Sequence record: OQ411014.1
From: Escherichia phage EJP2
Direction: 5' to 3' (one strand)
Length of the DNA stretch: 64,000 nt
Part shown: positions 4,323-61,078 of the stretch, one piece after another
How positions within the stretch are numbered: the stretch's first letter is position 1
Layout: every line of letters begins with the position of its first letter
Notes under the pieces: generated by a model
Told to the model about the DNA's origin: nothing
Databases searched by the model: none
What the model saw: the letters and a program-made list of their open reading frames with translations, nothing else
Translations under genes and position numbers: made by a program

Positions 4323-4346
4323 TTTATTACACAGGAGCTATTGACA

Positions 4347-4538
4347 ATGGAAGGTCAAACTTTTTATAATCGCATTCTTGAAGACAAAGCAACGTTCGAC
4401 CGCACGATTTATGATCTTGAACTAATGATTCAAGATGCTCCTAATCCACGCATTCGTACACAAGCTGAACTCGCAAAGAATTATCTAGTACAAGTACAAC
4501 TGATTTGCGATGCACTAAAAAAACATAATAATGATTGA
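4347..4538 (+). CDS. small hypothetical protein
   Basis: 63-codon ORF, AGGAG 8 nt upstream of ATG 4347. Confidence 0.45.
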   Translation: MEGQTFYNRILEDKATFDRTIYDLELMIQDAPNPRIRTQAELAKNYLVQVQLICDALKKHNND

Positions 4539-4563
4539 CAGTTAGAAAGAAAGACATTATTAT
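4535..4563 (+). promoter_or_regulatory. sigma70-like promoter (TTGACA-17-TATTAT)
   Basis: TTGACA 4535-4540, 17-nt spacer, TATTAT 4558-4563, upstream of 4643 gene. Confidence 0.5.
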
Positions 4564-4642
4564 ACACACATGCACTACAAAGTGGGATGGAAAAGCTATC
4601 CCACTAAAAATTCAAAAACACTATCTGGAGATGTGAATTTAT

Positions 4643-5143
4643 ATGAAATCTATTATTGCCAACAACGAAATTACTGCAACTTCCGTTCGTCTAGTTACTG
4701 AAGGGTCAAGTGAAGTACTGGCAATTGATAAAGCGTTAGCTAAAGCTCGCAATGAAGGTTTGGATCTAATCCAAGTAACTGAACATGATGTTCCGGTTGT
4801 GAAGATTGCTGACCTGAACAAGTTCAAATACGAGCAAAAACAAGCTGAGAAAGCTGCACAGAAGAAGCAACGTGCTAACATCATTCAGACTAAAGAAATC
4901 CAATTCGCTTCAAATACTCAAGAGAATGATCTTGCAGTAAAAGCAAAGAATGCTCGTAAGTTTATCGAAGAAGGTAAACAAGTACATATCGTAATGAAAG
5001 CTGCTGGTCGTTTAGGCACACAAACTGACTCCAACATTGAAACACTAGGGGCGTTTGTTGAACGTCTAGGTGAGAATGTTGAGTTCGTTCAGAAAGTAGA
5101 AGTTCAGGGTAAAAACATCACTTGCACTGTGAAAGCCAAATAA
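4643..5143 (+). CDS. translation initiation factor IF-3-like protein
   Basis: IRL..EG...V....AL..A...GLDL..V.....PVVKI.D..KFKYEQ...K.....Q..KE..F pattern parallels bacterial IF3; about 166 aa. Confidence 0.7.
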   Translation: MKSIIANNEITATSVRLVTEGSSEVLAIDKALAKARNEGLDLIQVTEHDVPVVKIADLNKFKYEQKQAEKAAQKKQRANIIQTKEIQFASNTQENDLAVKAKNARKFIEEGKQVHIVMKAAGRLGTQTDSNIETLGAFVERLGENVEFVQKVEVQGKNITCTVKAK

Positions 5144-5162
5144 TAAAAAGGATTGAGTTAGA

Positions 5163-5699
5163 ATGAAAAATGAAATCGAGCAACAGATTTTTCAAACGAA
5201 TCCTCTGCCAGTAGTAAAAACTACTTATAAGGATTCAGTATATTACGTCGCGGGTAAGCATGACCTTACTCGTTATGTCGAAAATGTTTCAGCGGCAAAG
5301 AGTGAAGAGTTTCGTGTTGAAGCAGCACTAAAACATCTCATCAATGATCGCCCTGAAGTGAATAAGTTGAATGTTCCAATGTTTGACTTTATTCTTCTCG
5401 ACGACCCAAAAACCACGGCAAACTTCGTTTCAATGTATTGCTATGATGTTCTACATTTTGATGATGACCGTTGTAACGAAGTAATTGAAGCACTGAATAC
5501 AGTAGGTTCTTACTATGTTGGTACTTACAGTGATGAACTCACTCTAACTCTAGCACACCTACTAGAAGAAGCTAACTCCCAACTGGACCAAAATCTAGGT
5601 TGGAATAAGATGGAACGTCAACCAGCAGATGATGCATTAGTTGATGCAATGGTTCTTCTAGAAAAACTAATCGAGCGTGATTACCCGCAAGATCTATAA
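5163..5699 (+). CDS. hypothetical protein
   Basis: 178-aa ORF, AG-rich RBS, followed by strong terminator. Confidence 0.6.
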   Translation: MKNEIEQQIFQTNPLPVVKTTYKDSVYYVAGKHDLTRYVENVSAAKSEEFRVEAALKHLINDRPEVNKLNVPMFDFILLDDPKTTANFVSMYCYDVLHFDDDRCNEVIEALNTVGSYYVGTYSDELTLTLAHLLEEANSQLDQNLGWNKMERQPADDALVDAMVLLEKLIERDYPQDL

Positions 5700-5707
5700 C
5701 AATAACT

Positions 5708-7234
<1,527 letters not shown>

Positions 7235-7240
7235 ATATCA

Positions 7241-7270
7241 GGGAGCGTCTATGACGTTCCCAATTTTTTT
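7241..7270 (+). terminator. intrinsic terminator
   Basis: GGGAGCGTC / GACGTTCCC stem followed by AATTTTTTT. Confidence 0.6.
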
Positions 7271-7298
7271 GAGATAACCAAATTATTTGTGATATAAT
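7270..7298 (+). promoter_or_regulatory. extended -10 promoter (TGTGATATAAT at 7288-7298)
   Basis: exact recurring 11-mer about 35 nt upstream of the topoisomerase gene. Confidence 0.55.
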
Positions 7299-18826: not shown

Positions 18827-18855
18827 TTGACACACCGATTAGTCTTAGATATAAT
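18827..18855 (+). promoter_or_regulatory. consensus sigma70 promoter (TTGACA-17-TATAAT)
   Basis: TTGACA 18827-18832, 17-nt spacer, TATAAT 18850-18855. Confidence 0.65.
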
Positions 18856-20725: not shown

Positions 20726-20754
20726 GTTGACAGGGAGTATGTAGGAACCTATAA
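20726..20754 (+). promoter_or_regulatory. consensus sigma70 promoter (TTGACA-17-TATAAT)
   Basis: TTGACA 20726-20731, 17-nt spacer, TATAAT 20749-20754. Confidence 0.6.
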
Positions 20755-20804
20755 TACTCCCATACCAAACGAGATGTACTTAAACAACCCATAAGGAACA
20801 CAAA

Positions 20805-21950
20805 ATGTCCGAGAAAGAAATCAACCCAAAAGCAATCGTAAAAACAAAAGCAAAAGCAAAAGCAAAAAAAGCAGCTACTGTATCTCGTACGATTGATGAA
20901 ACTATTGATTTTGTTGATGTTGAAACCAAGAATCTTCCTGCTGCTCCAGTACTGAAAGATTCTAAAGGTGGTACTCTAGCTCTGACCATCGAGAATATCA
21001 ACACTCTAGGTACTGATGTTGGTACTGGTATTGGTAAACTCTCTGATGATATTCTTCGTCAGGTGAACGTAGCGAACGACAATACCGAATTTGGTAAGTC
21101 CGTAAGTACTATTCTGACTCTAACCCGTAAGGTTGATATTGAGTCCCTGAACGGTGAGCAGACTGGTCTTCTGGCTAAGTTCCGTAACATGTTCAAAGAT
21201 GTGAAACATCGTGTATCTGACCAGTTGACTAACAGCCACGAACAGATCCAAGAAGTTGTCGCTACTCTGGAAACTGGTATCAACCGTATGCGTGGTGAAG
21301 CTGAATGGCTGAAACAAACTTACGATGCGAACATTGTATATCTGAAAGAACTCGAAGAAGTAGTACTGAACATTCAAGAAGTACGTGAAGTTGAAGATGC
21401 GAAACTCAAAGAACTTCTCGCTGATGACAGTACTGAAATGCACATTCTTGATGCACAAAAGATGATTTCTGAAGCTCTGTCCAAGCAAGAAGATAAAGTA
21501 AACCGTCTGATTCACCTGTGTCGTCTGAACGCACCACAAATCATGGCTATGCGTGGTGTGAACATCAACACAATTGATAAGTTCGAATCTCTGAAAACTG
21601 TAGTAATTCCAGCTTGGAAATCTAAGATTGCTCAAGGTCTGATTACTGATCGTCAGCGTCGTGATAACGAACTGGGTGAAATGATGGACAACGAAACTAA
21701 CCGTCTGTTCCTTGAAAGTGCTAAACAAACCAGTACTAACATGGTAACAGCAGCTAAATCCGCACAACGAGGGGTAGTAGATATCAAAACTCTACGTGAA
21801 GTACAGAAGATTACCACACAGGGTATCAAAGAAACTATCGCAGTACAGAAAGCAGGTGAAGCAGAACGTGAAGCAGCAAAACGTGAACTAGCTAACATGC
21901 GTATCGAACTTCGTGATACTCTACGCGATATCAAAAACGAATCTCGCTAA
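20805..21950 (+). CDS. coiled-coil protein, possibly TelA-like
   Basis: 381 aa, KAKAKAK repeat at N-terminus, long helical heptad-like stretches; TelA assignment is a guess from size and composition. Confidence 0.55.
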   Translation: MSEKEINPKAIVKTKAKAKAKKAATVSRTIDETIDFVDVETKNLPAAPVLKDSKGGTLALTIENINTLGTDVGTGIGKLSDDILRQVNVANDNTEFGKSVSTILTLTRKVDIESLNGEQTGLLAKFRNMFKDVKHRVSDQLTNSHEQIQEVVATLETGINRMRGEAEWLKQTYDANIVYLKELEEVVLNIQEVREVEDAKLKELLADDSTEMHILDAQKMISEALSKQEDKVNRLIHLCRLNAPQIMAMRGVNINTIDKFESLKTVVIPAWKSKIAQGLITDRQRRDNELGEMMDNETNRLFLESAKQTSTNMVTAAKSAQRGVVDIKTLREVQKITTQGIKETIAVQKAGEAEREAAKRELANMRIELRDTLRDIKNESR

Positions 21951-32855: not shown

Positions 32856-33362
32856 ATGCAAATGACTTACGAAGATACAATGACTCATCTCAGTACTATT
32901 GATATTGAAAAGTTCACTCTAGAAGTCACTACTGGCGACCGCAACAAGAAGATGTGGTACAGTGAATATGAAAATCAAGATGACCTGTATGTTGTGGTTT
33001 CTGATAACAGTTCTTGGGGATTGGTATCAATCACAGTATTCACACCAAATGCTGACAGGACAGTTTTGCATCGCTTCAACCGTTCTATCCATCCTAAGCA
33101 CGAACTGGACGTGATGAAGATTGAATCAATTATGTTCGACTTTGGTGGAAATCGAGATGATAAAGCGGACATTCCAGCAGTGTGCATTCAAAACCTAAGT
33201 ACACTGAAGTCCGAGTCTGATTTCTTCAGTTATATCCTAATGAACAACATCAATGATATCACACATCAGAATATCGTTGACTTCATTGAATTCACTGATA
33301 AACTGTACAGTAAATGGGTAGAACAGTTCGGTGAACCATCTCTAGGAGACGAAGATGAGTGA
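32856..33362 (+). CDS. hypothetical protein
   Basis: start moved to ATG 32856 with AAAAGG RBS. Confidence 0.55.
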   Translation: MQMTYEDTMTHLSTIDIEKFTLEVTTGDRNKKMWYSEYENQDDLYVVVSDNSSWGLVSITVFTPNADRTVLHRFNRSIHPKHELDVMKIESIMFDFGGNRDDKADIPAVCIQNLSTLKSESDFFSYILMNNINDITHQNIVDFIEFTDKLYSKWVEQFGEPSLGDEDE

Positions 33363-33753
33363 AATTCAATCCAGATGTTATATAGTACTGAACAAAGAAC
33401 TCCAGATGCCTGTCGGTAAAGCTGCTGTACAGGTTGGTCATGCGATGGATCAGGTTTGGGGAGCTTTCTGTAATATGACTTCACAACCTACCATGTCTTT
33501 GTTGGGTAACCTGAAGTACATGGAAGACTTTTCCAAATGGAAAGATGAAGGCCGTAAGAAAGTAACACTAGGTGCTAAGAACGACGCTGAAGTTCAGAAA
33601 TATAAAGACAAACTCCTTGATGCGGGTTATACTGTGTTTGATATCGTTGACTACGGAATCAATTTCTTTGATGGTGTAACCAGGACTGGTATTGTAGTCT
33701 TTCCAGTACTGAATGCTATCCCTGAACTAAAACGTTTACAGGTATTCAAATGA
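33355..33753 (+). CDS. peptidyl-tRNA hydrolase, PTH2 family-like
   Basis: VGKAAVQVGHA and C-terminal GVTRTGIVVFPV parallel the PTH2 GKGKVAAQCSHA ... T..GIGP pattern. Confidence 0.65.
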   Translation: MSEIQSRCYIVLNKELQMPVGKAAVQVGHAMDQVWGAFCNMTSQPTMSLLGNLKYMEDFSKWKDEGRKKVTLGAKNDAEVQKYKDKLLDAGYTVFDIVDYGINFFDGVTRTGIVVFPVLNAIPELKRLQVFK

Positions 33754-34530: not shown

Positions 34531-34968
34531 ATGCAATCGTACTTCTCCATAATTACCGATGTACTCGCAGAATATACCAAACCAGAACAGTGGACACCAA
34601 TCAAATCAGACGTAGGAGAACGCTACCGTTCAGTACTGGATGGTAGTGTCCTGTCCGTATCTAAAGCATTGATTGGTTTCATTTACAATGGAGACAAAGC
34701 ACCAGTCCAGGAATTGACTGTGAACATTTTTGCTAACTCGAAGTATTTTGTATTTGTAGACCGAAATACCAACAAGGTAAGAATAAAGACCAGTGTAGGC
34801 AGTACTGGTATTATGACGAGTAAGGTACTTTCTACTTTAGTTCCAGAAGATGAGTATTTTCATTTGATGTTATCATCTGATGAGTATCAGATATCCTATG
34901 AAGAGCAGAAAATATTGCTCAAGTTCATAGAACTCGCAAAGTGGGTACACAGGAAAAATAATCGTTGA
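34531..34968 (+). CDS. hypothetical protein
   Basis: 145-aa ORF. Confidence 0.55.
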   Translation: MQSYFSIITDVLAEYTKPEQWTPIKSDVGERYRSVLDGSVLSVSKALIGFIYNGDKAPVQELTVNIFANSKYFVFVDRNTNKVRIKTSVGSTGIMTSKVLSTLVPEDEYFHLMLSSDEYQISYEEQKILLKFIELAKWVHRKNNR

Positions 34969-34993
34969 CAGTACTGCTAGGTGTGCGTATAAT
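34965..34993 (+). promoter_or_regulatory. consensus sigma70 promoter (TTGACA-17-TATAAT), spacer contains CAGTACTG
   Basis: TTGACA 34965-34970, TATAAT 34988-34993. Confidence 0.6.
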
Positions 34994-36760: not shown

Positions 36761-37618
36761 ATGCAACCAATAACAGTACTTAGTCTGTTCAATGGAATGT
36801 CAGGCGGGATGCTTGCTTTAAACGAAGCACAAATACCCGTACATAAGTACTATTCATCTGAGATAGATAAGTTCGCAAACGCTGAGTCCCAAGCGAATTT
36901 CCCTGATATAGTCCAGTTGGGTGATGTTACCAAGTGGAAGGAATGGGATATTGAATGGGACAAAATAGATCTACTCATGGGTGGATTTCCATGCCAGGCA
37001 TGGTCTGTGGCTGGTAAACAGGGTGGAACGAACGATCCACGTGGAATGCTATTCCATACTATGGTTGATATCTATCATCATATTAAGGCGTTGAATCCGA
37101 ACTTGAAAGTACTGTTCGAGAACGTCAAGATGAAAGAAGACTTCAAGCAATACATTGATGGTATCTTAGGAATGACACCTAAGATGATCAACTCTCAAAA
37201 CTACACTGCTCACTATCGCCAGCGATATTACTGGTACTCATCTGATAAGTACTTTATCCCGCCTCCTATCATGTCTTCCCCTTCACTGCAATCAATTCTT
37301 GATAGTGATTACACTGATAGAGAGAAATCGTACTGTATAGATGCGAACTATTGGAAGGGTGGAGATCCTAACCAGTACTTCAACAAGTCCAGGCGGCAGA
37401 TGGTGTTCATGGACCCTGATATTGATAGAGAGTACCTTATTGAAAAGGGTATAAACAAGATTGACTATCGTAAGCTAAGTGTAGTAGAATGTTGTCGTTG
37501 TCAGGGAGTGCCGGATGATTACTTTAAAGTGTCCAGCAATACCCAAGCGTACAAGATGTTAGGTAACGGGTGGACTATCCCAGTCATCGCTCACTTATTA
37601 CGTGATATATTCTTTTGA
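36761..37618 (+). CDS. DNA (cytosine-5)-methyltransferase, orphan
   Basis: motif I LFNGMSGG, motif IV GFPCQAWSVAG, motif VI ENV; no adjacent restriction endonuclease candidate. Confidence 0.85.
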   Translation: MQPITVLSLFNGMSGGMLALNEAQIPVHKYYSSEIDKFANAESQANFPDIVQLGDVTKWKEWDIEWDKIDLLMGGFPCQAWSVAGKQGGTNDPRGMLFHTMVDIYHHIKALNPNLKVLFENVKMKEDFKQYIDGILGMTPKMINSQNYTAHYRQRYYWYSSDKYFIPPPIMSSPSLQSILDSDYTDREKSYCIDANYWKGGDPNQYFNKSRRQMVFMDPDIDREYLIEKGINKIDYRKLSVVECCRCQGVPDDYFKVSSNTQAYKMLGNGWTIPVIAHLLRDIFF

Positions 37619-43101: not shown

Positions 43102-43191
43102 AGAAGGTTGGCAGAGCGGCTAAATGCACTCGCCTACTAAGCGAGCACTCGCTCCGGCGAGTCGAGGGTTCGAATCCCCCACCTTCTGCCA
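43102..43191 (+). tRNA. type II tRNA with apparent ACU anticodon (Ser-like, unusual)
   Basis: acceptor AGAAGGT/ACCTTCT, anticodon stem CTCGC/GCGAG with loop CTACTAA, long variable arm, T-loop GGTTCGAATCC, encoded CCA; anticodon read by hand. Confidence 0.6.
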
Positions 43192-44445: not shown

Positions 44446-44540
<95 letters not shown>

Positions 44541-44695: not shown

Positions 44696-44769
44696 GGCCC
44701 TTTAGCTCAGTTGGTTAGAGCAGAGAACTCATAATTCTTTGGTCACTGGTTCGAGTCCAGTAGGGGCCA
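44696..44769 (+). tRNA. tRNA with CAU anticodon (Met or lysidine-type Ile2)
   Basis: acceptor GGCCCTT/AGGGGCC, D-arm TAGCTCAGTTGGTTAGAGC, anticodon loop CTCATAA, T-arm ACTGG-TTCGAGT-CCAGT; no CCA. Confidence 0.8.
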
Positions 44770-48877: not shown

Positions 48878-49357
48878 ATGGAATTAAGTTTAAAGCACCA
48901 GAATGCTCTGAAACGAGTAATGGACCATATCAAAACGAACAAGTCACTTTCTATGAGTACGTATGATTCCTTCCACAAAACAACACAAGTGTGGGCGAGT
49001 GATTCATTCGATAACTCGAAAGATAAAAGTAATTCTTGTATAGAAGATACTGATGGTGTAATATATGTAAATCTAAAGTACTCAAATTTTGAAGAAATGT
49101 ATATGTATATCGACATCAGAGATATGGTGGTTAACATTTCATATGCATATGATGAAGACATTGCTGCATTGAAACATGAATCGGAGATAACAAATGATTA
49201 TTGGTATGCTGATTTCACTGTTCCGATATTTGAAAAAGAAGAAGAATATTTCCAGTACTTAACTACTGAAGAGAATCCTTTGTCTATAGAAGAAAACAAA
49301 ATGTTTATTGATTTTGTTGTTGAATTTTATAAAAGAAAAGAAAAACATATTCGTTGA
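48878..49357 (+). CDS. hypothetical protein, paralog family A (KEEEYFQYLT)
   Basis: start moved to ATG 48878 with GGAGAG RBS. Confidence 0.55.
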   Translation: MELSLKHQNALKRVMDHIKTNKSLSMSTYDSFHKTTQVWASDSFDNSKDKSNSCIEDTDGVIYVNLKYSNFEEMYMYIDIRDMVVNISYAYDEDIAALKHESEITNDYWYADFTVPIFEKEEEYFQYLTTEENPLSIEENKMFIDFVVEFYKRKEKHIR

Positions 49358-49382
49358 CACATGACCTGTACTTGAGTATAAT
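49354..49382 (+). promoter_or_regulatory. consensus sigma70 promoter (TTGACA-17-TATAAT)
   Basis: TTGACA 49354-49359, TATAAT 49377-49382. Confidence 0.55.
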
Positions 49383-61049: not shown

Positions 61050-61078
61050 TTGACAGTACTGAATGACTGCTCTATAAT
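61050..61078 (+). promoter_or_regulatory. consensus sigma70 promoter (TTGACA-17-TATAAT), spacer contains CAGTACTGAA
   Basis: TTGACA 61050-61055, TATAAT 61073-61078. Confidence 0.55.

Follow-up and report, generated by a model that had tools for sequence, protein, structure and literature searches.

An Initiation Factor IF3 of Escherichia Phage EJP2 with a Degenerate Start-Codon Inspection Motif

Introduction

Why should a bacteriophage carry its own translation initiation factor 3 (IF3), and does such a factor work in the same way as that of its host? This question is raised by a gene at positions 4643..5143 of the + strand in a 64,000-nucleotide stretch of the genome of Escherichia phage EJP2 (sequence record OQ411014.1), which was analysed as a whole and is referred to here as the window. 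An original prediction, made from the DNA alone, described the product as IF3-like across both domains and suggested that it could bias initiation toward phage mRNAs. In the paper on EJP2, a genome of 349,185 bp with 37% G+C and six tRNAs was reported; the window has 37.4% G+C and holds all six of these tRNAs.

The presence of IF3 in EJP2 is already known, both from the GenBank records of EJP2 and dozens of its relatives and from reviews. Iyer et al. (2021) mentioned IF3, PTH2, and KTSC genes in "group 2.2" jumbo phages, and Al-Shayeb et al. (2020) listed IF3 among the translation genes of huge phages and discussed S21. For the related phage Sharanji, it was stated in a 2025 paper that the function of the phage IF3 "cannot be definitively stated." In our literature searches, no mention was found of the state of the RFRGR motif, which serves in start-codon inspection, in phage IF3. 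New in the present analysis are the family-wide loss of this motif, the evidence for a promoter, and the description of a conserved IF3-ClpS-like-KTSC block, which in one relative also includes S21. The overall best explanation, which is considered modestly probable, is that the gene codes for a functional IF3 paralogue that is produced early, binds to the host 30S subunit and has a weakened start-codon proofreading.

The EJP2 Protein Is a Two-Domain IF3

By inspection of the open reading frame, the coding sequence begins with ATG, comprises 166 codons and ends with TAA. A Shine-Dalgarno sequence, GGAG, is located at 4627..4630 (+), 12 nt before the ATG, and is conserved at this place in the relatives of EJP2. 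Since the N-terminus of the protein, MKSIIA..., is also conserved among these relatives, the assignment of the start is secure.

In Pfam, the N-terminal domain (IF3_N, PF05198) was identified at residues 7-72 (4661..4858, + strand) with 59.9 bits at a gathering cut-off of 26.9 bits, covering positions 2-70 of the 70 in the profile. The C-terminal, 30S-binding domain (IF3_C, PF00707) was identified at residues 81-165 (4883..5137, + strand) with 58.7 bits at a cut-off of 34.8 bits, covering positions 1-85 of 86. The infC equivalog model of NCBIfam, TIGR00168, gave a score of 108.5 bits with a cut-off of 60, and residues 1-166 were aligned to positions 1-167 of the 168 in PHROG 9787 ('translation initiation factor'; E = 4.5e-61). 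The IF3 chains of E. coli (8jsg_A, E = 1.6e-18) and of G. stearothermophilus (about 1e-18) were matched as well, and the protein is 100% identical to the deposited "translation initiation factor 3 [Escherichia phage EJP2]." The protein is unambiguously a genuine two-domain member of the IF3 family, with a similarity far beyond chance. The likeness that the original prediction had seen by eye across both domains is borne out by significant matches to both of them and to TIGR00168, each above its cut-off.

A model of the protein was calculated with AlphaFold2 (AF2) on the basis of a 45-sequence alignment, with a mean predicted local distance difference test score (pLDDT) of 85.8. The order of strands (E) and helices (H) in this model is E-E-H-E-E for the α/β N-terminal domain, followed by a helix at residues 58-79 and by E-H-E-H-E-E for the C-terminal domain. 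This is the dumbbell architecture of IF3, with an α/β N-terminal domain, a long helical basic linker and a βαβαββ C-terminal domain. In a Foldseek search against the PDB, the best matches were all IF3, among them the full-length IF3 in the 30S complexes 5lmn, 9ss1, and 8jsh with template modelling (TM) scores of 0.70-0.82, and the C-terminal domain was matched to 1tig, 2ife, and 6vrj. The linker after the N-terminal domain (residues about 58-79) is helical and rich in Lys and Gln. Its KFKYEQ sequence, which had been singled out as IF3-like, does align with 72-KFLYEK-77 of E. coli IF3, including the critical Y75.

Retention of the Residues Involved in Ribosome Binding

For the comparison of single residues, 45 members of the phage family were aligned with 134 further IF3 representatives obtained by an exhaustive search of 1.8 billion proteins. 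Residue numbers follow E. coli IF3 unless stated otherwise. The phage protein shares 31% identity with the IF3 of its host E. coli. Nevertheless, near-universal residues are kept in both halves of the protein, namely, N16, I19, R25, D52, L53, P63, K72, and Y75 in the N-terminal domain and the linker, and D106, K110, G121, G132, R133, and G167 in the C-terminal domain. A basic residue is retained at positions 112, 116, 129, and 168, which is K at the first three of these.

Several of the retained residues have been assigned a function in E. coli IF3. D106 and K110 have been implicated in the interaction with the ribosome, R112 has been linked to the dissociation of subunits as well as to 30S binding, and a critical role is ascribed to Y75 (PMC3401457). 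In the phage family, D106 and K110 (D96 and K100 in the phage protein) are each kept in 45 of the 45 members, position 112 (phage K102) is basic in all 45 (K in 44, R in one), and position 75 (phage Y63) is aromatic in all 45 (Y in 40, F in five). Since the residues which contact the ribosome are retained, 30S binding and the anti-association activity are expected to be preserved in the phage IF3. A loss of R99 was also considered as a trait specific to the family; this is not robust, with R present in only 69 of the 134 comparison IF3s and S at this position in G. stearothermophilus.

Loss of the RFRGR Motif in the Phage Family

The RFRGR motif is highly conserved in bacteria, and R131 contacts the nucleotides +2 to +4 at the start codon (PMC11775629). 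In EJP2, the counterpart of 129-RFRGR-133 is the degenerate sequence K119-A-A-G-R123 (phage numbering), encoded at 4997..5011 (+). The HMMER and MAFFT alignments agree on the pairing of KAAGR with RFRGR, so that the loss of the motif is no accident of alignment. At position 131, R or K was found in none of the 45 members of the phage family and in 3 of 18 sister phage-like lineages, compared to 112 of 125 other IF3s. F, L, or Y at position 130 is present in 2/45, 10/18, and 111/125 of these groups, respectively, and E, Q, or D at position 134 in 0/45, 6/18, and 118/125. E134 is replaced by A in G. stearothermophilus, which makes this position a secondary argument only. By entropy, columns 130, 131, and 134 are among the most variable ones of the phage family (92nd-96th percentile), while they are among the most conserved in the other IF3s (11th-28th percentile). 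The confidence of the AF2 model is lowest around the motif region, with a pLDDT of 72 for residues 121-130.

In a neighbour-joining tree, the sequences with the degenerate motif form one clade, and two sampled outgroup members of this clade come from jumbo phages in which the synteny is shared. Four unrelated huge-phage IF3s, those of Atu_ph07, Phosso, LR756511, and LR756504, keep a basic residue at position 131 together with E134 (RFKGRE, RFKGRE, VFKGRE, and EYKRRE, respectively). Judged from these sequences, the motif loss is an old, lineage-specific trait.

The consequences of changes in this motif have been described for other IF3s. In E. coli, the R131P exchange (infC135) promotes three kinds of initiation, namely, from codons other than AUG, on mRNAs without a leader, and by initiators carrying altered 3GC pairs (PMC11775629). 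When RFRGR is replaced by the KKGK of mitochondria, start codons are discriminated less strictly, and high IF3 levels no longer inhibit the translation of leaderless mRNAs (PMC11775629). Mycoplasma IF3 contains P, F, or Y at position 131 (PMC11775629), and mitochondrial IF3 and yeast Aim23p retain a lysine there (PMC3401457). Some accepted IF3s do without the motif, and its loss in the phage protein weakens the view that it works exactly like bacterial IF3, not the view that it is an IF3. It also speaks against the simple version of the originally proposed bias toward phage mRNAs, in which start sites would be selected more stringently.

Distribution and Selection

In tblastn searches, the IF3 gene was identified in 89 phage records, most of them from jumbo phages similar to RaK2, 121Q, and GAP32. 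The matches with 52-74% identity all belong to RaK2-, 121Q/PBECO4-, GAP32-, CBB-, or Hallingskeid-like jumbo phages, and many of these records, including the reference records of RaK2 and GAP32, already name the gene IF3. Older annotations of phage IF3 cite unrelated best hits, from Megasphaera and Hydrogenobacter. EJP2 represents a divergent lineage with a DNA identity of about 75% to its nearest relative, and a megablast search of the locus against the phage collection gave no match. The IF3 gene is under purifying selection, as shown by a ratio of nonsynonymous to synonymous substitution rates (dN/dS) of 0.11 between EJP2 and Erwinia phage Hallingskeid.

A Promoter-Like Site Upstream of IF3

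A σ70-type promoter-like site, TTGACA-17 nt-TATTAT, with 11 of 12 consensus positions is present at 4535..4563 (+), 80 nt upstream of the IF3 start. Within the window, the + strand carries 27 σ70-like sites with at least 11/12 matches and the − strand has none, with about 1.8 expected per strand; this excess argues that the site in front of IF3 is not a chance match. Comparable promoter-like sites are located directly upstream of IF3 in 121Q, fEgEco12, RaK2, Hallingskeid, and GAP32, with the sequence TTGACA-17-TATAAT in 121Q and fEgEco12. The related phage PA5oct was reported to depend on the host RNA polymerase. On the evidence of these consensus matches, the window looks like a dense array of early-type transcription units of the host RNA polymerase, and an early transcription of IF3 by this enzyme is likely. 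Thirteen of the 27 + strand sites match at 12/12 positions, and most are placed 28-50 nt upstream of gene starts; examples are found at 18827-18855, 20727-20755, 34965-34993, 49354-49382, and 61050-61078 (+). A perfect 12/12 match at 4341-4370 (+) overlaps the start of a conserved 63-amino-acid open reading frame at 4347-4538 (PHROG 15132), and a transcript from it would begin inside this reading frame.

The predicted 5' untranslated region (UTR) of IF3 comprises 98 nt and folds at -19.3 kcal/mol (z = -2.56). It contains a 10-bp hairpin, AGUGGGAUGG / CUAUCCCACU, at 4581..4605 (+). This hairpin was considered as a conserved regulatory element and rejected, being specific to EJP2 and absent from the relatives, whose UTRs are shorter.

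The IF3-ClpS-Like-KTSC Block

IF3 is followed after 19 nt by a gene at 5163..5699 (+), which is probably cotranscribed with it and codes for a ClpS-like adaptor homologue of 178 amino acids. The score of this protein with Pfam ClpS is 20.3 bits, below the cut-off of 23, and it matches PHROG 15940 with E = 8.7e-51. In 121Q, in GAP32, and in two phage contigs, L008 and L009, its counterparts are clearly ClpS, either by annotation or by score. The next gene, at 5764..6327 (+), encodes a KTSC-domain protein of 187 amino acids (PF13619, 49.7 bits), and at 6317..7234 (+) a protein of 305 amino acids is encoded which belongs to PHROG 25121 ('virion structural protein'). This is the last gene before an intrinsic-terminator-like hairpin followed by a T run at 7241..7261 (+), the first such site downstream, where the IF3 transcription unit probably ends. 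Another promoter-like site is located behind it at 7269-7298.

The block, at 4643-7234 of the window, is conserved across divergent jumbo phages and is also present at 6001-7753 of L008 and at 6001-7804 of L009. Both contigs hold the order helicase, two small open reading frames, IF3, ClpS, KTSC, and topoisomerase II at only 40-48% identity of IF3, with the KTSC gene in the same position. In L009, the 349-kb phage genome MG592671.1, a gene for the ribosomal protein S21 (PF01165, 81 amino acids) is inserted between IF3 and ClpS, and a second contig, L010, likewise carries an S21 gene between these two.

Start Codons, tRNAs, and Other Genes of the Window

The original prediction connected IF3 with an apparent use of GTG and TTG starts by several genes, with stop-start overlaps, with a tRNA with a CAU anticodon, and with a PTH2-like enzyme. 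According to Shine-Dalgarno scoring and the lengths of homologues, ATG is the start codon of 104 of the approximately 108 + strand genes (about 97%), and only 3-4 of the approximately 108 are without a nearby ATG bearing a Shine-Dalgarno sequence. GTG and TTG starts are rare (about 3%), and their apparent enrichment did not hold; it is mostly an artefact that arises when the earliest possible start codon is chosen, and the lengths of homologues and the placing of Shine-Dalgarno sequences indicate ATGs further downstream. Noncanonical starts are therefore no reason for a special IF3. Stop-start overlaps are indeed present, at 28 of the 106 same-strand junctions in rough gene calls, which is ordinary for phages.

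The tRNA with a CAU anticodon was found at 44696-44769 (+), and this part of the suggestion stands; an initiator tRNA, however, is not found among the six EJP2 tRNAs. Bacterial initiators are distinguished by a C1xA72 mismatch and by three consecutive G:C pairs (29-31:39-41) in the anticodon stem. The first pair of the phage tRNA is G1:C72, and its anticodon stem (GAGAA/UUCUU) is rich in A and U and lacks the three G:C pairs. The tRNA also has C4:G69 and C5:G68, and its best E. coli matches are annotated as tRNA-Ile (87.8% identity). It was therefore rejected as an initiator linked to IF3 and is, as judged from these features, of the AUA-decoding tRNA-Ile2 type. The codon ATA occurs at 9.8 per 1000 codons in the window, which fits an AUA reader in an AT-rich genome. 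For reading AUA, the tRNA would need lysidine modification by the host TilS. At 43102-43191 (+), ARAGORN identified a tRNA-Ser with the anticodon ACU, in which A34 is unusual (loop CUACUAA, Rfam 47.9 bits), and a second AGY reader, tRNA-Ser(GCU), is located at 44451-44540. A related phage has been reported to encode a tRNA-specific adenosine deaminase.

The proposed PTH2-like enzyme was confirmed as a PTH2 homologue of the archaeo-eukaryotic type at 33355-33753 (+) (PF01981, 52.5 bits; PHROG 1866, 'unknown function'), 28 kb from IF3. It was found by a Pfam scan of the whole proteome and a motif search, and it is unannotated in the closest relative, Hallingskeid. Three more proteins came out of the proteome scan, which by length and Hallingskeid synteny are probably encoded at 27164-28105 (an ADP-ribosylglycohydrolase, E = 5.7e-66), 20805-21950 (a TelA-like protein, E = 6.3e-37), and 36761-37618 (a C-5 cytosine DNA methylase, E = 2.4e-38).

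Proposed Function and Alternative Explanations

The favoured explanation, an early IF3 paralogue with weakened proofreading, can be described in several steps. The host RNA polymerase would produce the phage IF3 early in infection, and the factor would bind to the platform of the host 30S subunit at the canonical site, where it would replace or add to the host IF3. There, it might supply anti-association, recycling, and initiation-kinetics activities while host gene expression is shut down. Because the F130-R131 loop which contacts the start codon is lost in the phage lineage, together with E134, the codon-anticodon pair is predicted to be inspected less stringently than by the host IF3. The expected behaviour would resemble that of E. 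coli IF3 with R131P or with the RFRGR to KKGK swap, and that of Mycoplasma and mitochondrial IF3. At a high dose, such a factor could provide more initiation-competent 30S subunits without the inhibition by over-proofreading that an excess of canonical IF3 causes, and a possible benefit would be re-initiation at the many overlapping or closely spaced gene junctions. It probably acts together with the cotranscribed ClpS-like and KTSC proteins. What the data show are the homology, the fold, the pattern of conservation, the motif loss, and the promoter-like context; ribosome binding, relaxed proofreading, early timing, and a benefit to the phage are all parts of this explanation which we infer.

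Several points weigh against this explanation. The effect ascribed to the R131 loss is carried over from observations on E. coli mutants and on the IF3 of organelles, and in some members of the family the loss could be offset by a different basic residue of the phage loop, which is longer. There is no obvious need for relaxed proofreading in a phage with almost exclusively ATG starts, Shine-Dalgarno sequences and no unusual initiator tRNA. The IF3s used for comparison are the 150 best hits to the phage protein and no unbiased sample of the family, the neighbour-joining tree carries no support values and most of its representative sequences no taxonomic labels, and the promoter and terminator calls are matches to a consensus only. 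Literature searches turned up no experimental work on an IF3 from any phage.

The same data were weighed for other roles of the protein. The phage gene might serve as a plain supplement of IF3 dosage, in which a factor of normal fidelity adds stringency and favours phage mRNAs with AUG and Shine-Dalgarno sequences over weaker host starts, while the host infC is repressed through its AUU start. The predominance of such starts in the phage agrees with this, as do the conservation of the N-terminal domain, the linker, Y75, and the ribosome-contact residues, and the score above the infC equivalog cut-off. However, none of the 45 family members has kept the start-codon motif, and its columns rank with the most variable ones of the protein, which would be unexpected if stringent codon inspection were selected, and equivalent changes in E. 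coli IF3 relax discrimination (PMC11775629); a supplement of this kind is regarded as rather unlikely. A role outside start-site selection is judged improbable. Here, the protein would rescue or recycle ribosomes, reactivate hibernating ones, or release assembly factors such as RbfA from the 30S subunit, and together with PTH2, the ClpS-like protein, and KTSC it would let stressed or stationary cells support infection. Iyer et al. (2021) suggested ribosome rescue or support of phage translation for the IF3, PTH2, and KTSC genes, IF3 is described as releasing RbfA from mature 30S subunits under stress (PMC7145577), the ClpS and KTSC neighbours are conserved, and a PTH2 gene lies within the window. 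All of this is circumstantial, though; PTH2 is 28 kb off in a different operon, and the role relies on ordinary 30S binding and so overlaps with the favoured explanation.

A competitive decoy, which would occupy the IF3 site of the 30S subunit as a defective factor and block host initiation during shut-off, would account for retained 30S-binding residues next to a degenerate functional loop and for the apparent early expression from a σ70-type promoter. Phage mRNAs must initiate on the same ribosomes, however, and purifying selection acts on the two domains as well as on the linker and Y75, none of which a mere blocker of the site would need. The isolated C-terminal domain of E. coli IF3 suffices for 30S binding, which also counts against a decoy, and this role is considered decidedly improbable. 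As for a functionless passenger recently captured from a bacterium, only the cellular ancestry of the gene speaks for it. The low identity to the host IF3, the synteny and conservation across the 89 phage records as well as across jumbo-phage contigs that are more distant, the purifying selection, and the gene's own conserved promoter and Shine-Dalgarno sequence leave this reading hardly credible, and it is effectively refuted by the conservation data.

A more far-reaching form of the favoured explanation, an IF3 with weakened proofreading, is put forward tentatively. Here, the IF3 of RaK2-like jumbo phages would be naturally relaxed in proofreading, with the R131 loop given up but 30S binding and anti-association retained. 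It would be made early from a host-type promoter and be encoded by the lead gene of a conserved IF3-(bS21)-ClpS-like-KTSC takeover operon which changes the initiation rules of the host. Host IF3 would be displaced, and, for example, re-initiation at overlaps or initiation at weak sites would be favoured or a very high dose of IF3 would be tolerated. If true, a virus would here be seen for the first time to re-tune the fidelity of initiation with a factor of its own. The combination of motif loss with intact ribosome-binding residues turns the vague notion that the protein may help phage translation into a specific hypothesis which is testable in E. coli; if confirmed, the protein would be a natural separation-of-function variant of IF3 and would represent a new mode of viral translational control. 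The wider question is how jumbo phages take over enterobacterial ribosomes, for which the IF3-ClpS-like-KTSC block, sometimes with S21, provides a further lead.

Comparison to Known Systems

E. coli InfC has the same two-domain fold with a helical linker as the phage IF3, which is without the N-terminal tail. The phage gene starts with ATG, whereas E. coli infC has the autoregulatory AUU (ATT) start, and it is placed in an operon with ClpS-like and KTSC genes instead of infC-rpmI-rplT. Both the AUU start and the infC-rpmI-rplT context are typical of enterobacterial infC and not defining for the IF3 family. The RFRGR-E of the E. coli protein is replaced by KAAGR-L in the phage.

In infC135 (R131P), the KKGK swap, Mycoplasma IF3, and mammalian IF-3mt, the loop contacting the start codon is lost or weakened, as in the phage family. 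In these systems, discrimination is relaxed and the inhibition by high IF3 is relieved (PMC11775629), and for the phage protein such an effect would be expected by analogy. Mitochondrial IF3 and Aim23p keep K131, which none of the phage family does, and unlike in the relaxed-fidelity systems, no accompanying usage of non-AUG starts, leaderless mRNAs, or odd initiators was identified in the EJP2 window. Phage-encoded bS21 resembles IF3 as a phage-borne component aimed at 30S initiation; however, it is a ribosomal protein and not a factor, and it is absent from this position in EJP2.

Among phages, the IF3s of Atu_ph07 (Agrobacterium), Phosso (Sinorhizobium), and the uncultured LR756511 and LR756504 are also two-domain proteins, with only about 33-38% identity to the EJP2 protein. 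For huge-phage IF3s of this group, a redirection of host translation has been suggested. The IF3 gene of Atu_ph07 and of Phosso comes after a Clp ATPase gene, whereas in EJP2 it precedes the ClpS-like gene. In the corresponding stretches of Atu_ph07 (L004, 1-795) and Phosso (L005, 1-801), IF3 is located directly 3' of a gene for a 'Clp protease ATP-binding subunit', and a linkage of IF3 with Clp thus recurs in separate phage lineages. The closest counterparts are RaK2 ORF153, 121Q gp47, and GAP32_313 (PHROG 9787), which are the same gene with 52-74% identity over the full length. In the RaK2-, 121Q-, GAP32-, and CBB-like phages, the gene occupies the same place as in EJP2, flanked by the Dda-like helicase block on one side and by the ClpS-like gene on the other. 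Nothing essential differs between these IF3s and that of EJP2, which is set apart by its divergent lineage and the extra hairpin in its 5' UTR.

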